DNA from: a virus
Taxonomy: Duplodnaviria; Caudoviricetes
DNA length: 62,720 nucleotides
Strand: one strand, 5' to 3'
IMG/VR virus record: IMGVR_UViG_3300037242_000251
Coordinates: 1 to 62,720 of that record
This document shows positions 7,900 through 56,962 of the stretch, piece by piece. The notes under the pieces are model-generated. The model was not told the DNA's origin. It searched no databases and was given only the letters and a program-made list of their open reading frames with translations. The position numbers and the translations under genes were made by a program. Each line of letters opens with the position of its first letter. The stretch's first letter is position 1.

Positions 7900-8153
7900 G
7901 CAGACCTCGTATCTACCGCTACGTCCGCGGCGGCGAGCCGCGCTTCGTCCCACTCCGGCCGGCGATCCGCATCAGCGACGACGATCTGACGGCGCTCAGG
8001 CTCGCGCACCCCGGCTCGACCGGCCACCCGCGCGGCCTGCCGAGACGCTGCGGCGTCAAGACCGGGCTGAGGGCGATCGCCGCGATCCTGGGATGCAGCG
8101 AGCACGTGGTGCGCTATCGGCTGCGAAAGATCGCCGAGCGGGAGGAATCATGA
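7896..8153 (+). CDS. Small basic protein with C-terminal HTH
   Basis: LRAIAAILGCSEHVVRYRL; ATGA-coupled at both ends. Confidence 0.6.
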   Translation: MSRPRIYRYVRGGEPRFVPLRPAIRISDDDLTALRLAHPGSTGHPRGLPRRCGVKTGLRAIAAILGCSEHVVRYRLRKIAEREES

Positions 8154-8629
8154 GCGAATGGGAGACAATCGGAAAATCCGACGACTGGCGCTCGCCGAAA
8201 TATATTTTTAACGCGATGAATGTCGTTTTCTGGCTCGACGTTGCCGGCATTCAAGGAACATTTGGTAACGTTCCGTGTCAGCACGCGCTGCTACAAGATA
8301 GTCTCGAAGCGGAATGGGGTGGCTTCGTCTGGATGAACCCACCGTTCGGCGGTCGCAACGCGATCCGGCCGTGGTTAGAGAAGTTCTTCGCTCACGGCAA
8401 CGGCGTGGCGCTCATGCCTGACCGCACGTCGGCGCCATGGTTCCAATGGGCGGCGCGACGCGCCGACGCGGTGCTGTTTCTGTCGCCGAAGGTGAAGTTT
8501 GAGCGACCCGACGGGACAATCGGTAAGTCGCCCGGCAGCGGCACGGCACTGATGGCGGCGGGATCGGAGGGTGTTCAAGCACTCGTCAACGCAAAGAAAC
8601 TCGGTTGGTTGGTGAAATCCTATGGCTGA
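8150..8629 (+). CDS. Phage Dam-like DNA N6-adenine methyltransferase
   Basis: DDW.SP, LDVA, VWMNPPF, DRTSAPWF motifs. Confidence 0.85.
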   Translation: MSEWETIGKSDDWRSPKYIFNAMNVVFWLDVAGIQGTFGNVPCQHALLQDSLEAEWGGFVWMNPPFGGRNAIRPWLEKFFAHGNGVALMPDRTSAPWFQWAARRADAVLFLSPKVKFERPDGTIGKSPGSGTALMAAGSEGVQALVNAKKLGWLVKSYG

Positions 8630-10850
8630 ATGCCGCTGCGACTTCGAGACTAGATCCGATGTCGATCTGAAAACTCGCGGCGCCGGGCCGTACTTCGCCT
8701 CTCCACACTGGCGGGCGCTCATTCTGGTCTACAGCATCGACGATGCGCCGATCCAGACGTGGACCGGCGGACCGTGCCCCGACGATCTACGATCGCATAT
8801 CGAGGACGGCGGTTGGATCAGGGCTTTTAATTGTTCGTTCGAGCGCCATTGCTTCGACGAGATGGCCCGACGCTGCGGCTGGCCATTGCCCGCCTTCGAC
8901 CGCTATCGCTGCTCGATGGCGACGGCGTCGGCGCTCGGCCTGCCGCGCAGCCTCGACAAGCTGGGAGAAGCGCTGGGCCTGAAGGTCCGCAAAGACAAGC
9001 GCGGCGCGGCGTTGATCCGCTTCTTCTCGGTTCCGGCCAAGCATGAGCCACTCATCTTCCGGGAGCCGGCCGACCACCCGAAGGAATTCGCCGAGTTCAT
9101 TGCCTACTGCCGGCAGGACGTCGAGACCGAGGCGGAGGCCGACCGGCGCATGGTTCCGCTCAGCGACGACGAGCAGGCCGTCTACACGCTCTCCGAGACG
9201 ATCAACCAGCGCGGCATCCGCATCGATACAGCCTCGGCGCGCGCCGCGATCCGGCTGATCGAGAAAGAGAAGGCGCGGCTCGACGCCGCCATGACCGAAG
9301 CGACGGGCGGCGCGGTGACGGCCTGCACGCAGGCGGCGCGACTGACGGCTTGGCTCGCCCGAGAAGGCGTGACGATGGACGGCGTCGCCAAAGACGACGT
9401 CCTGGAGGCGTTCGAGCTCGACGATCTTCCCGAACAGGCGCGGCGCGCTCTTGAGCTTCGCCAGGAGGCGTCCAAACCGTCGACCACCAAACTGCTGGCG
9501 TTTCTGCGCTGTGCCGACAAAGACGAGAGAGTGCGCGGAACCTTTGGCTATCACGGGACCGGTCCGGGCCGGTGGACGTCGGCTGGTGGTGTGAATCTCT
9601 ATAATCTTCCGAGGCCACGCCCCGTCTTCGACAACGCAGACCTCGACCCGGCGACGTTATTCGCTGCCTTCCGCGGCGAGGAGCCAGCGCTGCTGCGCGA
9701 GATGTACGGCGACAACCTCGGCAAACCGACGCACCTCGTGTCGGACGCCATGCGCGGGTTCCTGATCTCAGCGCCCGGCAAGGACTTCATCGCGGTCGAC
9801 TACTCCGGCATTCAAGGCGCGCTCTGCGCCTGGTTCGCCGACGAGAAGTGGAAGATGCAGGCGATGCGCGAGATCATCGCCGACCCGGCACGCCCGGACC
9901 TCTATCGCCGCACTGCGGCGAGCATCCTCAACACAACGACGGATGTCGTCACCAAGAAGCATTGGGGCCGTCAAATCGGGAAAGTTGCCGAACTGGCGCT
10001 GGGCTTCCAAGGATCCGTAGCCGCGCTGGTGTCGATGGCGGCGAACTACAACATGCTGCGCCGCAATCTGCACGACCTTTACCCCGGCGTGTGGTCGGCG
10101 GCTGACGAAGCGGCGCGCGAGCGCGCAACCAAGCGGTATGAACAGCGGCTAAAGAGTCGCGATCGACAGAAGACCGATATTCTCACCCGAGAGGCGTGGC
10201 TCGCCTGTATGATCGTGGTTCACGCTTGGCGGCGCCAAAACGCCGATATCGAGGCAGCGTGGAGCGATCTAGAAAATGCGGCGCGCGCCGCGCTGCGCGA
10301 ACCCGGCGTCAAACAACGCGCACTAGGCCGCATCGACTATCTCTACAAGAATGGCTTTCTGTGGTGCCGGCTACCGAGCGGGCGTTGCATCGCCTACGCC
10401 AAACCGCAGCTACGCGACCAAGTCTGGGCCAAACTGCAACTGAATGACGGGACTTGGGGCGAAGCTGAAGTCGTCGACCGTGAAGAAGCTGAAAAGCTAT
10501 CACTCGTCGGGCGAGCGCAGATTCAAGGAGTGACATCTGCGAAGGTCACGGCGCTGGGCTTCGATTCCACGACCCAGAAGATGATCCGCTACGGCCTGTA
10601 TGGAGGACTTCTCATGGAGAACTGCGCGCTCGGAACAGAATCCGACATCCTGCGCATCGCGATGCGGAAGTGCGAAAGTGCAGGATACCCGATCGTGCTG
10701 CACGTCTACGACGAAGCCGTCGCCGAGGTCGAGCGAGGCTACGGCTCGATCGAGGAGATGGAGCGACTCATGCTCGACATGCCGGCGTGGGCTGAGGGTT
10801 TACCGCTCGACGCACATGGCTGGCGCGGCAAGCGATATGCTAAAAAATAA
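8622..10850 (+). CDS. polA: Family A DNA polymerase with 3'-5' exonuclease, atypical active site
   Basis: ExoI DFET, ExoIII YCRQD; motif A DYSGIQ, motif B RQIGKVAELALGF, motif C HVYDE. Confidence 0.92.
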   Translation: MAECRCDFETRSDVDLKTRGAGPYFASPHWRALILVYSIDDAPIQTWTGGPCPDDLRSHIEDGGWIRAFNCSFERHCFDEMARRCGWPLPAFDRYRCSMATASALGLPRSLDKLGEALGLKVRKDKRGAALIRFFSVPAKHEPLIFREPADHPKEFAEFIAYCRQDVETEAEADRRMVPLSDDEQAVYTLSETINQRGIRIDTASARAAIRLIEKEKARLDAAMTEATGGAVTACTQAARLTAWLAREGVTMDGVAKDDVLEAFELDDLPEQARRALELRQEASKPSTTKLLAFLRCADKDERVRGTFGYHGTGPGRWTSAGGVNLYNLPRPRPVFDNADLDPATLFAAFRGEEPALLREMYGDNLGKPTHLVSDAMRGFLISAPGKDFIAVDYSGIQGALCAWFADEKWKMQAMREIIADPARPDLYRRTAASILNTTTDVVTKKHWGRQIGKVAELALGFQGSVAALVSMAANYNMLRRNLHDLYPGVWSAADEAARERATKRYEQRLKSRDRQKTDILTREAWLACMIVVHAWRRQNADIEAAWSDLENAARAALREPGVKQRALGRIDYLYKNGFLWCRLPSGRCIAYAKPQLRDQVWAKLQLNDGTWGEAEVVDREEAEKLSLVGRAQIQGVTSAKVTALGFDSTTQKMIRYGLYGGLLMENCALGTESDILRIAMRKCESAGYPIVLHVYDEAVAEVERGYGSIEEMERLMLDMPAWAEGLPLDAHGWRGKRYAKK

Positions 10851-51462: not shown

Positions 51463-51765
51463 ATGCGCTGGCTCGTCCTATTCGCTTTGCTCGCTGCGCC
51501 GGCGCTCGCTCACGACGCTTGGTCCGACGGCTCGGCGGTTCCACCGTGGGTTAAGTCGATGTGCTGTGGCGAGGCCGACGCGCATCAGCTCGCCGACGGC
51601 GAGGCTTGGCAGGAAAGCGATGGTTGGCATTTCCGCGCCGTCGACGCGGTCGTTCCCGACACAAGCGTGCTGCCGAGCCAAGACGAGCACGTGTGGGCGT
51701 TTTGGAACCTGGCTTATGGGCGCGCCGCGCCAATCTACTGTCTGTTTATCCCGATGGGCGCCTGA
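51463..51765 (+). CDS. Exported Cys-containing protein (AH…CC…D…C family)
   Basis: Signal peptide ending ALA-H; CCGEAD. Confidence 0.7.
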   Translation: MRWLVLFALLAAPALAHDAWSDGSAVPPWVKSMCCGEADAHQLADGEAWQESDGWHFRAVDAVVPDTSVLPSQDEHVWAFWNLAYGRAAPIYCLFIPMGA

Positions 51766-51767
51766 CA

Positions 51768-51953
51768 ATGATCGCGCTCAAACCCTTCGTCGTCCCGACT
51801 GTCACAGCGCTCATCGGCATGGCGCTGCTGATCTTCTGGGCCTATGACAACTACGACGGCTGGGGTAAGTTCGTCCTTGGCGGAGGGTTTCTGGTCGCCG
51901 GGCTGTACGGCGTGTCCGAAGCGGCGGAAACGAGAAAGGACGACGAATCGTGA
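51768..51953 (+). CDS. Two-TM small membrane protein
   Basis: 61 aa, overlaps endolysin start. Confidence 0.6.
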   Translation: MIALKPFVVPTVTALIGMALLIFWAYDNYDGWGKFVLGGGFLVAGLYGVSEAAETRKDDES

Positions 51954-52639
51954 CCGGCATAGCGCTCACCTCGACTCAACTCCTTGCCGCTGCGCCGAAC
52001 GCGCTTCCGAACGTCGTCGCGGCGATCGTCGAGGACTGGCCGGTGCAGTCGGTTAAGTACCAGATCACCACGCGCAACCGGATGCTTGGCTTCCTGTCGG
52101 TGTGCATCGAAGAGTCCGGCGGTCTGACGGCGCTGGTTGAGGACGACAATTACTCCGCCGCACGCGCCGCGCAAGTCTTCCCGTCGATCTTCCCGACCGT
52201 CGCGTCGGCTGAACCCTACGCCGGCAACCCGGTAGCCTTCGCTAACAAGGTCTACGACGGACGCATGGGCAACATCCTCGGCTCCAACGACGGCTGGAAT
52301 TTTCGAGGCCAGGGCTTGCTGCAGGTGACGGGGCGCGACGAATTTGCGGCGCTTTCCAAGGCGACTGGTCTATCCCTGCTGGCAAATCCGAACTTGGTCT
52401 CCAGCGACGAGTATCTGTTGGAGTGCGCGTTGGCGACCTTCAACATGTACGCCTACGGCAACATTCTCGTCCTATGCGACGCCGGCAATTTCGAAGGCGT
52501 CTGGGCGCTGGTCGGCGACGGCACGCCGAGCGGCCCGGTCGTCAATCTGGCGAACCACGAGGCCGCGCTCGCGGCGCTGGAGAAGACGCTGACGGCGCTG
52601 CGGCTAGCGTTTTCGCAACTGGAGAAGGTGATCCTGTGA
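51950..52639 (+). CDS. Glycoside hydrolase family 19 endolysin
   Basis: EESGG, ANKVY..RMGN....DGW.FRGQGLLQVTGR. Confidence 0.9.
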   Translation: MTGIALTSTQLLAAAPNALPNVVAAIVEDWPVQSVKYQITTRNRMLGFLSVCIEESGGLTALVEDDNYSAARAAQVFPSIFPTVASAEPYAGNPVAFANKVYDGRMGNILGSNDGWNFRGQGLLQVTGRDEFAALSKATGLSLLANPNLVSSDEYLLECALATFNMYAYGNILVLCDAGNFEGVWALVGDGTPSGPVVNLANHEAALAALEKTLTALRLAFSQLEKVIL

Positions 52640-53298
52640 CCACGCTGGTCGTCGTCGGCATGAAGTCTGAGGCCAACATCGTCTCGACGATGCCCGACAC
52701 GGTCGTCGTGATTGGCGCTGGCGCCGCCATCCAGCTGACTGCGGACATCGAAGCGGCGATCGCCGGCGGCTGCGACCACGTCTTGTCATTCGGAACCTGC
52801 GGCGCGCTGGCGCCGGACCTCGTCGCTGGACAACTGGTCGTCGGCACGCTGATCGAGGACGCGCCGAACCTCGACATCGACTGCGACGAGACGTGGGCCG
52901 CCAGCATCGAGGCGGCGACAGGCGCGACGCCGGTCAGCGTGACGACCGCCGCCACAACGGTGGCGACGGTCGCCGAGAAAGCCACGCTGTTCGCCTCGAG
53001 CCACGCCGACGTCGTCGATCTTGAATCCTGCGTCGCGGCGCGAGTCGCCAAGGCCCACAACCTGCCCTTCGCTGTGCTGCGCGCGGTTTCCGACGCCGCC
53101 GATCAGGACATCCCGCCCGCCGCGCTCGCGGCGCTGACCGCGACCGGAAATATCGACGTCGGGGCGATCATCGCGTCGCTGACGATCGACGACGATCAGA
53201 TACCGGCGCTGCTGAAGCTGGCCGACACCTCGGCGCTGGCTTTCAACGCACTGGCGCAGGCGCTCGCCGACCTAGGCATAAACTACGGAGAGTGCTAG
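52636..53298 (+). CDS. hpnG: HpnG-like (hopanoid-associated) nucleoside phosphorylase
   Basis: VVGM..EA, LSFG.CGAL.PDL, EKA.LF....A.VVDLES, PFAVLRAVSD, PPAAL.AL...G.ID; GTGA-coupled to the endolysin. Confidence 0.75.
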   Translation: MTTLVVVGMKSEANIVSTMPDTVVVIGAGAAIQLTADIEAAIAGGCDHVLSFGTCGALAPDLVAGQLVVGTLIEDAPNLDIDCDETWAASIEAATGATPVSVTTAATTVATVAEKATLFASSHADVVDLESCVAARVAKAHNLPFAVLRAVSDAADQDIPPAALAALTATGNIDVGAIIASLTIDDDQIPALLKLADTSALAFNALAQALADLGINYGEC

Positions 53299-53348: not shown

Positions 53349-53564
53349 ATGATTGGCTTAGCGATCGGCATCCTGTGGCTCGCGATCGGAGTGATCGTTC
53401 TCGGCGCGATCCTCTACATCCTGTTCTGGGCGGTTCGCATGTTCTTCCCGATTCCGCCCAACGTCGAGAAGGCGGTATGGGCCGTGTTCGGAATTCTCAT
53501 CCTGATCTACTTGCTGATGGCGGTCGAAGGGGGCACTCTTCCCCATCCCGCTTTGTTTCGATAA
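53349..53564 (+). CDS. Small hydrophobic holin-like membrane protein
   Basis: 71 aa, two TM helices, AAGGAG SD. Confidence 0.65.
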   Translation: MIGLAIGILWLAIGVIVLGAILYILFWAVRMFFPIPPNVEKAVWAVFGILILIYLLMAVEGGTLPHPALFR

Positions 53565-53668: not shown

Positions 53669-54007
53669 ATGGAAATCGGCCCGAACATCAAAGGGTACAT
53701 CAACCTCGTCATCGCCATCTGCGGCGTGATCGGGACAGTCGGCGTGAGCGCCTTTCCCGACTACATCCCGCCGGGCGTGGCGAAGGACGTCGTCCAGACC
53801 GCCGCGCTGATTTTCGCGATCTACGGCGGTCTCAACAGCGCCGGGAATTTCCTGTCGTCCAACCAGCCGGGTCTCTTCGCTCCCAAGGATCCACCCGTCG
53901 TGGTGGCGGCGAAGAAAGTGGCTGATCTGCCCTCGACGGCGACCTCTGCGGCGATAGCGGGGGCCAAGGCGTCGGCCGTGTCCGCCATCGACGCGCATCA
54001 ACCGTGA
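53669..54007 (+). CDS. Holin-like membrane protein
   Basis: Two TM helices, lysis region. Confidence 0.55.
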   Translation: MEIGPNIKGYINLVIAICGVIGTVGVSAFPDYIPPGVAKDVVQTAALIFAIYGGLNSAGNFLSSNQPGLFAPKDPPVVVAAKKVADLPSTATSAAIAGAKASAVSAIDAHQP

Positions 54008-54016
54008 GATAAGAAG

Positions 54017-54187
54017 ATGCTCGTCGTCGCGATCCTCGGAACCATCGGCGCCGTCGTCTGGACGGTGTTGGCGATCCAAGCGAAGGCTTTGTCAAAGGCG
54101 CCTTCACTGGGGTTTGAGGGTGGCGGATTAGTTGCGATTATGTGGCTGATCGTGGCGGCGTTGTGGGCCGTGTGGTGGTTCGCATGA
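54017..54187 (+). CDS. 56-aa two-TM peptide
   Basis: Read by hand; ATGA overlap with next gene. Confidence 0.5.
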   Translation: MLVVAILGTIGAVVWTVLAIQAKALSKAPSLGFEGGGLVAIMWLIVAALWAVWWFA

Positions 54188-54357
54188 TCCTCATCGTTGT
54201 CGCCGCCGCGTCCGCAGCCGCTGGCGTCATCTTCGGCATGTGGGCGGAGCGCCGCAGCATCGCCGCGAACGACGCGCGCGTGAAGCAAACAATCTGTGAC
54301 CTCGGCGCGGCGATCGCGCAGGGGATTAGCATCGACCAGAAGGAAACTACGCCATGA
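54184..54357 (+). CDS. 57-aa N-anchored membrane protein
   Basis: ATGA-coupled at both ends. Confidence 0.55.
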   Translation: MILIVVAAASAAAGVIFGMWAERRSIAANDARVKQTICDLGAAIAQGISIDQKETTP

Positions 54358-54722
54358 GAAAATTGTTCGTTTCAATGATCGTCGCCCCGGCGATCATGCT
54401 CGCCGCCTGCACCTCAACCGAAGTTCAGGCCAACGTGTTGGCGGCTTGCCAGGCGCTCGGCGCCGGGGCGTCCGCCGTCGCCACTGTCGCCGGGCTCCTG
54501 CCCGATGGGACGGAGGTTTCCTCTGTGGTCACAGGGATCGTGACCGATGTGACCAACGACTGCCCGGCCTTCGCCAGCGACGTCGCCAACGCGGTGGCGG
54601 CGATCTCGAACATCGGCGGGTCGGGCACCGTGTCGGTGGCGGCGCAGACTGCGTCGATGAAGGCTCGCGGCGAGCGGATGCGGGTGTCGGCGCCGTTCCA
54701 CTTCGGTCCCTACGGCAGCTAA
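54354..54722 (+). CDS. Lipoprotein (possible spanin component)
   Basis: Lipobox LAAC at residues 16-19. Confidence 0.65.
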   Translation: MRKLFVSMIVAPAIMLAACTSTEVQANVLAACQALGAGASAVATVAGLLPDGTEVSSVVTGIVTDVTNDCPAFASDVANAVAAISNIGGSGTVSVAAQTASMKARGERMRVSAPFHFGPYGS

Positions 54723-54734
54723 CGAGGAGGCCCC

Positions 54735-54872
54735 ATGCGGCCCGTACTCGAAATCGGCGCAGCCGTCATAGGCGTGGTCGCGTTCCTGTACCTCGTGTTT
54801 GTGGTCGTCGCGTGGGGCGTCGTTCCGTGGATCATTGATAAGTTCAGAGGGTGGCATGCCAAACTCAGTTAG
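54735..54872 (+). CDS. 45-aa membrane peptide
   Basis: GAGGAGG SD, single long TM helix. Confidence 0.55.
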   Translation: MRPVLEIGAAVIGVVAFLYLVFVVVAWGVVPWIIDKFRGWHAKLS

Positions 54873-56055
54873 CGTCGCCGCGACCTCGAGCAGCGGTATC
54901 GACTACACCATCGCCCTAACCGTCACCGGACCGAAAACGGCGACGATCGATCTCGGCAACGGAGAGAGCTACGCGCTGACCGGAATGCAGCGCAACGGTG
55001 ATTCAGCGACCTGCCAAACCTCAGTGCTGTTCGCCACAGCCCAAGTCGCGGTGCTGGTCGGTCCAGCGTCGGTCGAGATCGAAGTCAGCGGCATTTGGCT
55101 TGCCCCTCCGCCCGCAACCTATGCGATCAGTGCGGCTGACAGCGCCGCCATCATCGCTTGGCTGCAGAACTTCCCCGAAGGAGGCGCCGCAGTGGTCTTC
55201 CCGTACGAATTTGGAAAAGGGCCGCCCTTGTCGTTTCCGTTCAAGTTCGGCCGCCGCAGGATGGTCGCACCGAAGGCGTGCATGCGCTTCCGTGACTATC
55301 AGCTATTGAGCTTCCCTGGCGCGCCGGCATCGGGGGATTACCGTCCACAGGCTGCGCAGGCGCTCGCCCAGATGTACGACAACGATACACTGGGCGACTG
55401 CGTCATCGCCTGGATGGCTCACGCGATCGGCGTCTTTACCGGCAACGCCAGCGGCACGCCGGATATTTTCTCGACGCAGGATATCGTCTCGATGTACGCG
55501 GCGATCGGCGGCTACAACCCGGCCGACCCAAGCACCGACCAGGGCTGCGACGAGAACACCGCGCTCGACTACTGGCAGGCGACTGGCTTCGTCGGTCACA
55601 AGATCAGTGGCATCCTGTCGGTCGACGCCACCAATCCGAAAGAGTGCGCGGCCGCGGTCTGGCTGTTCGAGAATCTGATGTTCGGCGTGGCGTTGCCCGA
55701 CGAGTGGACGCACCCGACTCCCGCCGGCTCCGGCTTCGTCTGGGACGTTGCCGGTGATCCTGACCCAGATCAGGGCCACTGCTTCGGCTCGGCGTCGTGG
55801 GACGAGAATGGCGTCGGGGTGCAGTCGTGGGGCATGAGCGGGTCGATCACTTATGCGGCCGTCGCGAAGTACGCCGTCGCCTCAGCTGGAGGGCAACTGT
55901 TCAGCGTCATCACGCCCGAGATCCTCAACAAGGCGACGCTGAAGTCCCCGGCTGGGTTTGACTTCAATCAGCTCACTGCCGACTTCGTCGGCATGGGCGG
56001 TACGGTGACGACCGCGCAGCCGCCAAACCCGACGCTGGTCGGGAAGAAGGCGTGA
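54856..56055 (+). CDS. Papain-fold cysteine peptidase-like protein with N-terminal extension
   Basis: ND.LGDCV.A (Cys), GHC (His), VQSWG. Confidence 0.65.
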   Translation: MPNSVSVAATSSSGIDYTIALTVTGPKTATIDLGNGESYALTGMQRNGDSATCQTSVLFATAQVAVLVGPASVEIEVSGIWLAPPPATYAISAADSAAIIAWLQNFPEGGAAVVFPYEFGKGPPLSFPFKFGRRRMVAPKACMRFRDYQLLSFPGAPASGDYRPQAAQALAQMYDNDTLGDCVIAWMAHAIGVFTGNASGTPDIFSTQDIVSMYAAIGGYNPADPSTDQGCDENTALDYWQATGFVGHKISGILSVDATNPKECAAAVWLFENLMFGVALPDEWTHPTPAGSGFVWDVAGDPDPDQGHCFGSASWDENGVGVQSWGMSGSITYAAVAKYAVASAGGQLFSVITPEILNKATLKSPAGFDFNQLTADFVGMGGTVTTAQPPNPTLVGKKA

Positions 56056-56240
56056 CGAGATCGAAGTTCCACGGCGCCTCGTGGGCGCTTCTGGTACGAC
56101 GGGCTGAAGGAGGAAAGATCGCACGCATGGCTGAGACAGAGAGGCGGATGCGAGAAGCCTGTGCCGATCCCGACCGTCGTGCGCGTCTCGTGCAGATCGT
56201 CGGCGAAGCGCCGCTGAAACGGTTCTCTGGAGCTGCTTGA
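56052..56240 (+). CDS. Hypothetical protein
   Basis: 62 aa, GTGA-coupled. Confidence 0.45.
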   Translation: MTRSKFHGASWALLVRRAEGGKIARMAETERRMREACADPDRRARLVQIVGEAPLKRFSGAA

Positions 56241-56242
56241 GT

Positions 56243-56962
56243 ATGGCTATGGCGAAGACCCCGTTAGGGCGTGAGGACAACATCGTGACGGAACCCAGGA
56301 ATGGAGGCAGCCGTCCGGTCCCCGATCCGACCGCGCTGACCAACGAGCTCGTCGCACAGGCGACGCTGGCGCTGCGAGAATTTCTTGAGTCTCAAATCGC
56401 CAACGTCAAAGAACTATCCGACCAGAAAGTTCAAGCACTCACTGAGACAGTGGCTGTCTTCAAGACGGCGGTCAACGAACGGTTTCAACTTGGCGACGTC
56501 CAGACCGAGAAGGCGGCGCGCGACGTGAAGTCGGCCGTCGATGCGGCCTTCGCGGCGGCGAAAGAGGCCGTCGGCGAACAGAACAAGTCGAACGCCTTGT
56601 CCATCGCCAAGAGCGAACTCGCCACCACGAAACAGATCGACCAGATCGTCGAGAACCAACGAGTCTCGACCAAAAACACCGATGACAAGATCGACACGCT
56701 CAAGAGCAACTCCGACGACAAGTTCGCTGACCTGAAGAACCGTTTGGTCGCAATGGAGGCGCGCGGCAGCGTGATGGATCCAGCCACCGCGAAAGCCATC
56801 AGCGACATGGCTCATTCGTTGTCAAACTTACGGGCTGGTTCGGATAACGGGGTGGGGCGAGACCAGCAAACTGATCGCATCGGTAATCTGGTGGTCGGAT
56901 TCTTCGCGGTGCTCGCCACTTTGATCTCGCTGGTCGCTATCATCCTTCACTTCGTTCATTGA
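56243..56962 (+). CDS. Coiled-coil protein with C-terminal TM helix
   Basis: PDPT.LT, AVDAAFAAAKEAV.EQN.S...I.KSE..T.KQID. Confidence 0.75.
   Translation: MAMAKTPLGREDNIVTEPRNGGSRPVPDPTALTNELVAQATLALREFLESQIANVKELSDQKVQALTETVAVFKTAVNERFQLGDVQTEKAARDVKSAVDAAFAAAKEAVGEQNKSNALSIAKSELATTKQIDQIVENQRVSTKNTDDKIDTLKSNSDDKFADLKNRLVAMEARGSVMDPATAKAISDMAHSLSNLRAGSDNGVGRDQQTDRIGNLVVGFFAVLATLISLVAIILHFVH

Follow-up and report, generated by a model that had tools for sequence, protein, structure and literature searches.

A putative HpnG-family enzyme encoded in the lysis cassette of a tailed phage and of other phage lineages

The IMG/VR virus record IMGVR_UViG_3300037242_000251 (Duplodnaviria; Caudoviricetes), the whole of which is called the window here, has 62,720 bp and direct terminal repeats and is complete. 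Among the sequencing runs listed for its DNA the best are labelled peat and permafrost metagenomes, and the search listed no RNA run for the stretch. At positions 52636-53298 (+) it carries an open reading frame (ORF) for a 220-amino acid protein (labelled P0001) related to HpnG, the enzyme that removes adenine from adenosylhopane, giving ribosylhopane, in the synthesis of the side chain of C35 hopanoids. The gene lies inside a lysis cassette made up of a holin-like gene, an endolysin gene, the HpnG-like gene itself, genes for membrane proteins and a spanin-like pair. We conclude that the gene is real and that, by its conserved residues and phylogeny, its predicted product is a catalytically intact protein from a phage-borne and acidic subclade within the HpnG family. 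Most likely this protein is an active adenine-releasing enzyme which is made with the lysis proteins and acts on adenosylhopane. The explanation that we prefer as a whole, namely a phage HpnG-family enzyme that alters the extended hopanoids of the host alongside lysis, is put forward tentatively, its chances being in our estimate a little short of even.

The gene and its predicted product

The GTG start codon of the HpnG-like gene (52636-52638) overlaps the TGA of the endolysin gene (52637-52639) in the tetranucleotide GTGA, and the sequence GGAGAAGG, which contains GGAG, is located 8-15 nt upstream of the GTG. The reading frame is open from 52423, but homologues start at the position matching 52636 (MKTAVVVGM...). 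The junction between the two genes is no assembly chimera, since contigs from the runs of another study bridge it; one of these (X3 record 12) covers 52432-52710 with 1 different letter in 279 nt. The contigs used in this check came from four runs and are short pieces, the bins of high depth consisting of 21-24-nt matches of unrelated contigs. Because the overlap joins the HpnG-like gene to that of the endolysin, its product is probably made late, together with the lysis proteins. Two serial GTGA overlaps chain the holin-like, endolysin and HpnG-like genes (Table 1), which implies serial translational coupling of all three.

The best NCBIfam model for P0001 is TIGR03468 (HpnG), with 147.9 bits (E=3e-43) and residues 3-208 aligned on positions 4-211 of the 212 in the model; the second, NF005476, gave 128.2 bits against a cut-off of 215. 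Models for 5'-methylthioadenosine (MTA)/S-adenosylhomocysteine (SAH) nucleosidase (MTAN), MTA phosphorylase (MTAP) and futalosine hydrolase gave 13-34 bits with partial coverage only. Among them the MTA/SAH nucleosidase and futalosine hydrolase models (20-34 bits) covered just residues ~104-158, and the MTA/SAH nucleosidase cut-offs were missed (TIGR01704, 20.7 vs 73.8 bits; PRK05584, 28.1 vs 169 bits). The cut-off of PF01048 (PNP_UDP_1) was passed, at 47.4 vs 25.1 bits. An AlphaFold2 model built from 20 relatives, with a mean predicted local distance difference test (pLDDT) value of 92.7, ends in two helices (175-184 and 186-213); its best solved matches in Foldseek are MTA/SAH nucleosidases (TM-scores of 0.56-0.68).

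An earlier reading of the window, made from the sequence alone, had described a 220-amino acid protein of the purine nucleoside phosphorylase (PNP)/MTAN fold starting on the endolysin stop codon, and the ORF, the overlap, the PF01048 match and the fold model all bear this out. It had also remarked on a short N-terminus and a C-terminal extension resembling those of HpnG, both of which are covered by the TIGR03468 alignment, the extension being homologous to that of HpnG; on DLES in place of DMES, which is indeed present as D128-L-E130-S (the 20 closest relatives have L in 7, F in 7, M in 5 and C in 1 at this position); and on a notably acidic composition, which corresponds to an isoelectric point (pI) of 4.05 and a net charge of -21. 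Its assignment to HpnG rather than to a generic nucleosidase stands with respect to the best match (147.9 bits for TIGR03468 vs 20.7-34 for the MTAN and nucleosidase models) but falls short of the curated TIGR03468 cut-off of 187.1 bits.

Residues E12, E130 and D153 are invariant across the 20 closest relatives, and in an alignment the latter two fall on the ME and SD motifs of MTANs. When the 38 proteins of the phage-type clade described below were compared with 226 other sequences, each of the 31 positions with a conservation of 80% or more in both groups carried the same residue. They include E12, W87, K115, D128, E130, R149 and D153, and nine of them are within the C-terminal extension (P160 to G214). 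Five positions discriminate between the groups at the 60% level, none of them catalytic. To judge from these positions, we take the phage-type protein to have kept its active site and substrate frame while its surface was remodelled.

A phage-type clade and its hosts

A word-indexed protein search found 284 proteins at E <= 0.001 among the 8,000 candidates scored. Its top tier (P0002-P0020) is 46-65% identical to P0001; below this the identity is ~42% or less, and many of the proteins, for example from Roseomonas, are named 'hopanoid-associated phosphorylase'. An exhaustive search returned 6,042 representatives at E <= 0.001, only 20 of them at E <= 1e-30. FastTree was run on 264 rows, comprising all collected proteins of 180-300 amino acids and two native host HpnG (three proteins outside this size range, presumably P0027, P0234 and P0259, were left out). 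P0001-P0020 and 18 further representatives form one clade of 38 with a support of 99. A quick search with IQ-TREE also kept the 38 together, with a value of 94 in the Shimodaira-Hasegawa-like approximate likelihood-ratio test (SH-aLRT); its 92 rows were made up of these 38, both host natives, 15 named proteins, 35 others taken at random and, as outgroups, two AMP nucleosidases. When rooted on the AMP nucleosidases, the tree has 49 cellular rows as the sister group of the clade, with a support of only 19 for one deeper branch. The pI is below 6 in 37 of the 38 clade members (median 4.6) and in 32 of the 224 other HpnG-like proteins (median 9.2). On phylogeny and composition we regard the clade as a separate, acidic and phage-borne subclade of the HpnG family. 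Of 10 other clade members scanned, nine had TIGR03468 and one had NF005476 as the best model; looking up the clusters of 10 members produced no names that were informative.

Relatives of P0001 were also sought in virus collections. No match was found by tblastn against 50,697 INPHARED records of GenBank phages. Scans of IMG/VR with P0001 alone, with P0122 or P0126 singly and with a profile of 12 cellular HpnG (A4), all of which used short peptide patterns and were not exhaustive, found no viral relative, and a fold search of BFVD gave, at E <= 0.001, nothing from phages and only three nucleoside phosphorylases of giant viruses. The sequence-only reading knew of no described example of a phage HpnG, and a full-text literature search likewise found no published description of one. 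The literature on nucleosidases in lysis cassettes and on hopanoids in phage lysis, judged mostly by titles and the beginnings of abstracts, yielded nothing relevant.

Two phage-type loci were found in bacterial genomes, one (L005) inside a 2.46-Mb contig of an alphaproteobacterial metagenome-assembled genome (MAG; G001) and the other (L004) inside a 31-kb contig of a Hyphomicrobiales MAG (G002). Both MAGs also have a native HpnG above the TIGR03468 cut-off (203.4 and 205.8 bits, compared with 141.4 and 145.5 bits for the phage-type copies), and in both hpnH and the squalene-hopene cyclase gene (shc) score above their cut-offs and lie ~5 kb apart. The native hpnG lies far from shc and hpnH or on another contig, and so outside the core hopanoid cluster in these hosts. 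Judged by gene content, then, the known hosts (n=2) are hopanoid makers with an HpnG of their own, which agrees with the hopanoid setting suggested by the sequence-only reading. That reading had also allowed for a passively captured host gene. Recent capture is unlikely because the native HpnG of G001 shares no more than 32% identity with the prophage copy and 33% with P0001; the phage-type proteins, moreover, form their separate acidic clade.

A gene resident in a prophage might serve the lysogen, remodelling its hopanoids against superinfection or for stress tolerance. The position of the L005 copy in a large bacterial contig, with an integrase-family gene ~34 kb away, is in keeping with such a role in lysogenic conversion or exclusion (TerL_ATPase, PF03354, had no match in G001 or G002). 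The window phage, by contrast, is complete with terminal repeats, has no match to the tyrosine-integrase family and no tRNA genes, and encodes its own replication proteins, its products including a DNA polymerase, a helicase, an exonuclease and primase-like proteins as well as virion and tail proteins. Among 401 genomes sampled from the order of G001 the phage-type match was confined to G001 itself (346.6 bits); matches in 20 other genomes scored 127-153 bits, like the native gene of G001 at 143.4; a single phage-type copy is too few for a correlation with hopanoid genes. The coupling to the endolysin gene, in addition, implies late expression, and we hold a lysogenic role to be very improbable.

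The hosts have a bearing on a second alternative as well, in which the HpnG scaffold has been turned into a soluble nucleosidase and hopanoids are not involved. Its substrate would be MTA, SAH, 5'-deoxyadenosine, a nucleotide or a signalling molecule, and its purpose adenine salvage, relief of product inhibition of radical S-adenosylmethionine (SAM) enzymes or methyltransferases, or interference with host signals. A host that already has HpnG makes a duplicate activity in need of a reason, and its native protein is distant from the prophage copy. The separate clade, the scores below the HpnG and PRK07077 cut-offs and the strong shift in pI fit a new substrate too. Yet the MTAN, futalosine and MTAP models match the core only, the HpnG-specific C-terminal extension and every family-conserved position have been kept, and the neighbours are lysis and membrane genes rather than genes of nucleotide metabolism. 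Nor is there a likeness to nucleosidase-type defence effectors, the PADLOC models giving no family at E up to 1 for any of the four clade members scanned. We consider this alternative somewhat unlikely.

Lysis cassettes and exchange of the gene

Context was available for phage-type loci from several sources: two (L002 and L003) from an IMG/VR scan with a profile of the 20 closest relatives (A1), the two in bacterial genomes, six in metagenomes (L012-L015, L017 and L019) and L047, a 98.8-kb viral record carrying P0125 which came from a single-protein scan. Merging near-identical loci by nucleotide comparison (L004, L012 and L015; L002 and L017; L003 and L014) left eight lineages including the window, and all eight are phage-like. 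A peptidoglycan hydrolase is encoded upstream of the HpnG-like gene, within 0-3.7 kb, in seven of the eight, and these hydrolases are of four unrelated types (Table 1). The linkage to lysis genes is accordingly more than a singleton, a point on which the sequence-only reading had hung its proposal. Tail-fibre genes are nearby in L002 and L005.

Table 1. Features of the lysis cassette of the window and of the surroundings of the HpnG-like gene in other lineages
Record	Position (strand)	Length (aa)	Feature	Remarks
Window	51463-51765 (+)	100	Protein with signal-peptide-like N-terminus and several cysteines	Directly before the holin-like gene; weak, sub-threshold Cupin_6 match (E=0.0031)
Window	51768-51953 (+)	61	Holin-like protein	Two hydrophobic segments, charged C-terminus (by hydropathy); stop overlaps endolysin start (GTGA)
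Window	51950-52639 (+)	229	Endolysin	phrog_181 (5.1e-41); weakly GH19-like; stop overlaps start of HpnG-like gene
Window	52636-53298 (+)	220	HpnG-like PNP/MTAN-fold enzyme (predicted)	Phage-type acidic subclade
Window	53349-53564 (+)	71	Membrane protein	Two hydrophobic segments; no Pfam or PHROG match
Window	53669-54007 (+)	112	Membrane protein	BLAST-linked to genes adjoining the HpnG-like gene in L004, L013 and L047
Window	54017-54187 (+)	56	Protein with two hydrophobic segments	
Window	54142-54357 (+)	71	i-Spanin-like candidate	Architecture only; N-terminal hydrophobic anchor; stop overlaps next start
Window	54354-54722 (+)	122	o-Spanin-like lipoprotein candidate	Architecture only; lipobox LAAC at residues 16-19; no Pfam or PHROG match
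Window	54799-56055 (+)		phrog_19005 protein	Homologues near the HpnG-like gene: L002 10304-11167, L004 10030-11208, L013 1476-2303, L047 6659-7432
L002			Amidase_2 + PG_binding_1 endolysin	Ends 83 nt upstream of HpnG-like gene
L004			Amidase_2 + PG_binding_1 endolysin	Ends 83 nt upstream of HpnG-like gene
L004	5212-6828 (+)	538	phrog_8480 'lysophospholipase L1-like esterase' (1.5e-17)	Directly before the amidase endolysin; recurs in near-identical L012 2481-4097 and L015 114-1730
L003			Rv2525c-like glycoside hydrolase, then phrog_263 holin	Upstream of HpnG-like gene
L005			Rv2525c-like hydrolase, then small ORFs	Upstream of HpnG-like gene
L005	8663-9316 (+)		Lipase_3 / phrog_21992 esterase	Overlaps stop of HpnG-like gene (7989-8669)
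L019			Homologue of window endolysin (weak GH19 Pfam match), then one membrane-protein gene	Upstream of HpnG-like gene
L047			Phage_lysozyme2 protein	3.7 kb upstream; membrane proteins on both sides
L013			Membrane protein of the loose family of window 53669-54007	838 nt of upstream sequence only

In the window the endolysin proposed by the sequence-only reading is well supported by its PHROG match. The GH19 label attached to it is weak, Pfam PF00182 giving E=0.0058 and 16.9 bits, below the cut-off of 25.5. Where holin-like genes had been expected downstream, small membrane proteins and a lipoprotein candidate are encoded 3' of the HpnG-like gene. Single-linkage clustering also ties the 112-amino acid membrane protein to L003 7095-7481 (phrog_263 holin, 4.8e-05); the idea that its relatives constitute one holin family was rejected, as the alignment is heterogeneous, with shared domains in the absence of uniform homology.

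Several other genes in these regions are of note. The phrog_19005 protein accompanies the HpnG-like gene in five of the eight lineages; it has no Pfam match, and the lead from the ESM Atlas is to 'Peptidase C39-like' viral clusters (score 0.97). Conceivably this protein is a second enzyme with a lytic or processing role. Proteins of ~240 amino acids which look largely helical and have a single C-terminal hydrophobic tail are encoded 3' of the HpnG-like gene both in the window (56237-56962, +) and in L047 (8778-9488, +); their likeness is one of architecture only, with no BLAST similarity at 1e-5 and no Pfam match. The overlap between the lipase and HpnG-like genes of L005 suggests a lipid-directed pair in that lysis region. 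The phrog_8480 protein of L004 could equally be a tail-associated deacetylase. No SGNH or Lipase_3 domain was found in the window.

Several of the phages align with one another at the nucleotide level in the HpnG-like gene alone, as in the 694 nt shared by the window and L002. In the comparison of the 16-kb loci L003 and L005 it alone aligns, over 676 nt at 90.5% (L003 7981-8653, L005 7981-8656). The two HpnG-like proteins are ~91% identical; the endolysins and neighbouring proteins reach 38-57% in tblastx pieces. Because the gene is far more alike than its neighbours, the comparison points to a recent, gene-sized exchange between phages. The ratio of nonsynonymous to synonymous substitution rates (dN/dS) ranges from 0.22 to 0.58 over 21 pairs, which we interpret as purifying selection, though not of a tight kind.

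These data allow a third alternative to be weighed, that of an auxiliary metabolic gene or passenger which supports ordinary C35 hopanoid synthesis during infection (for example acid tolerance in peat) and owes its place among the lysis genes to inherited synteny. As the phages have other homologous genes of this module in common (families 1, 2 and 6), pointing to common module ancestry, the conserved position may in part be inherited rather than reflect selection for linkage. The moderate dN/dS is compatible with a passenger. In addition, according to the available part of a preprint (bioRxiv 10.64898/2026.06.18.733297), amoC-phages of 155-338 kb carry a host-like hpnH, so that phages do carry genes for the hopanoid side chain. 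The endolysin, on the other hand, has at least three times given way to a non-homologous type with the HpnG-like gene left in place, the latter gene seems to have travelled alone between L003 and L005 in recent times, and overlaps join it to the endolysin gene in the window and to the lipase gene in L005. A passenger is in our view unlikely.

Proposed function and comparison with known systems

In the explanation that we prefer, the predicted enzyme would act in the infected cell, where it would split off adenine from adenosylhopane or a closely similar lipid-linked adenosine substituted at the 5' position, and the pool of extended hopanoids in the envelope would shift while the lysis proteins accumulate. 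As a committed guess, this would condition a hopanoid-stiffened envelope for the action of the holin and spanins; the effect could also be in the opposite direction, the envelope being kept sound until lysis. The enzyme would work either in the cytoplasm, ahead of holin triggering, or in the periplasm, once let out through the holin lesion. Like the sequence-only reading, which spoke of timing or aiding lysis, we infer a service to lysis by way of hopanoid composition. In favour of this explanation we count the family match and the conserved positions kept, the fold, the selection on the gene and its mobility, the recurrent lysis context, the hopanoid-making hosts and the lipid-active neighbours in L004 and L005. 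A stricter version would make the protein a dedicated lysis accessory which, together with the endolysin and by way of the holin lesion, strips adenine from adenosyl-hopanoids of the envelope and loosens the outer membrane for the spanins, in some phages perhaps in teamwork with a neighbouring lipase or esterase. In this dedicated form the proposal is decidedly unlikely.

A number of observations weigh against an enzyme that alters extended hopanoids during lysis. P0001 and the 10 other clade members scanned (125.6-163.1 bits) all score below the HpnG cut-off, and the midpoint root of the FastTree phylogeny separates the clade of 38 from both host natives and from all 27 proteins named as hopanoid-associated. 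The acidity of the clade, set against the mostly basic cellular relatives, could mean a different location or substrate. A profile search of solved structures returned no HpnG, only MTANs and more distant phosphorylases. A hydropathy scan found neither a signal peptide nor a transmembrane segment in the HpnG-like protein, so that it could act beyond the cytoplasm only if the holin lesion let it out. No hpnH was found in the window, and the neighbours of the gene in the phages are lysis genes rather than shc, hpnH or other hopanoid genes. The inherited synteny considered above and the dN/dS values of up to 0.58, which denote no tight constraint, tell in the same direction, and the eight lineages with known context represent just 8 of the 38 clade representatives. 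Lastly, in the portions of reviews available to us HpnG is known from knock-outs which accumulate adenosylhopane, and it is described there as a putative phosphorylase whose proposed phosphorylated product is unobserved.

A conserved and mobile phage-specific branch of HpnG in lysis cassettes offers a testable handle on how phages lyse hosts with hopanoid-stiffened envelopes. What comes to light may be a new accessory step in lysis, or else phage metabolic genes of a new class, acting to reshape membrane lipids. Many bacteria that live in soil or in association with plants have membranes stiffened by hopanoids, which are also major geochemical biomarkers, and we know of no account of how phages handle envelopes of this kind. 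Adenosylhopane-type compounds serve as soil markers, and phage control over the adenosylhopane step in peat and permafrost could affect how such biomarker signals are read. A soluble, acidic relative may also be easier to study than cellular HpnG.

The closest known protein is HpnG itself (TIGR03468), to which the phage protein corresponds in the best full-length model match, the length class, the short N-terminus, the helical C-terminal extension, the conserved positions and the hopanoid-making hosts. It differs in scoring below the cut-off, in forming a separate clade, in being acidic rather than basic and in its location, the phage copy being found in lysis cassettes and cellular HpnG beside hopanoid genes in cellular genomes. 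With MtnN/Pfs and futalosine hydrolase it shares the fold and, by alignment, the acid catalytic residues, which in MTANs we take to be E12, E174 and D197 in E. coli numbering; MTANs are without the C-terminal helical extension (residues 175-213 in the P0001 model). The LysB protein of mycobacteriophages is a lipid esterase of the lysis cassette, the hosts having an unusually reinforced outer layer. The resemblance is one of role only, that of a lipid-directed enzyme without signal peptide encoded beside the endolysin, since the fold and chemistry are different (an ester vs an N-ribosyl bond); were the dedicated accessory role to prove true, the phage protein would be a hopanoid-directed counterpart of LysB. 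The hpnH of the amoC-phages, as far as the available part of that preprint goes, is likewise a phage-carried gene of the C35 hopanoid side-chain pathway, but there the copies are highly similar to those of the host and reside in much larger phages, whereas the HpnG-like gene belongs to a divergent phage clade and is situated in a lysis cassette.

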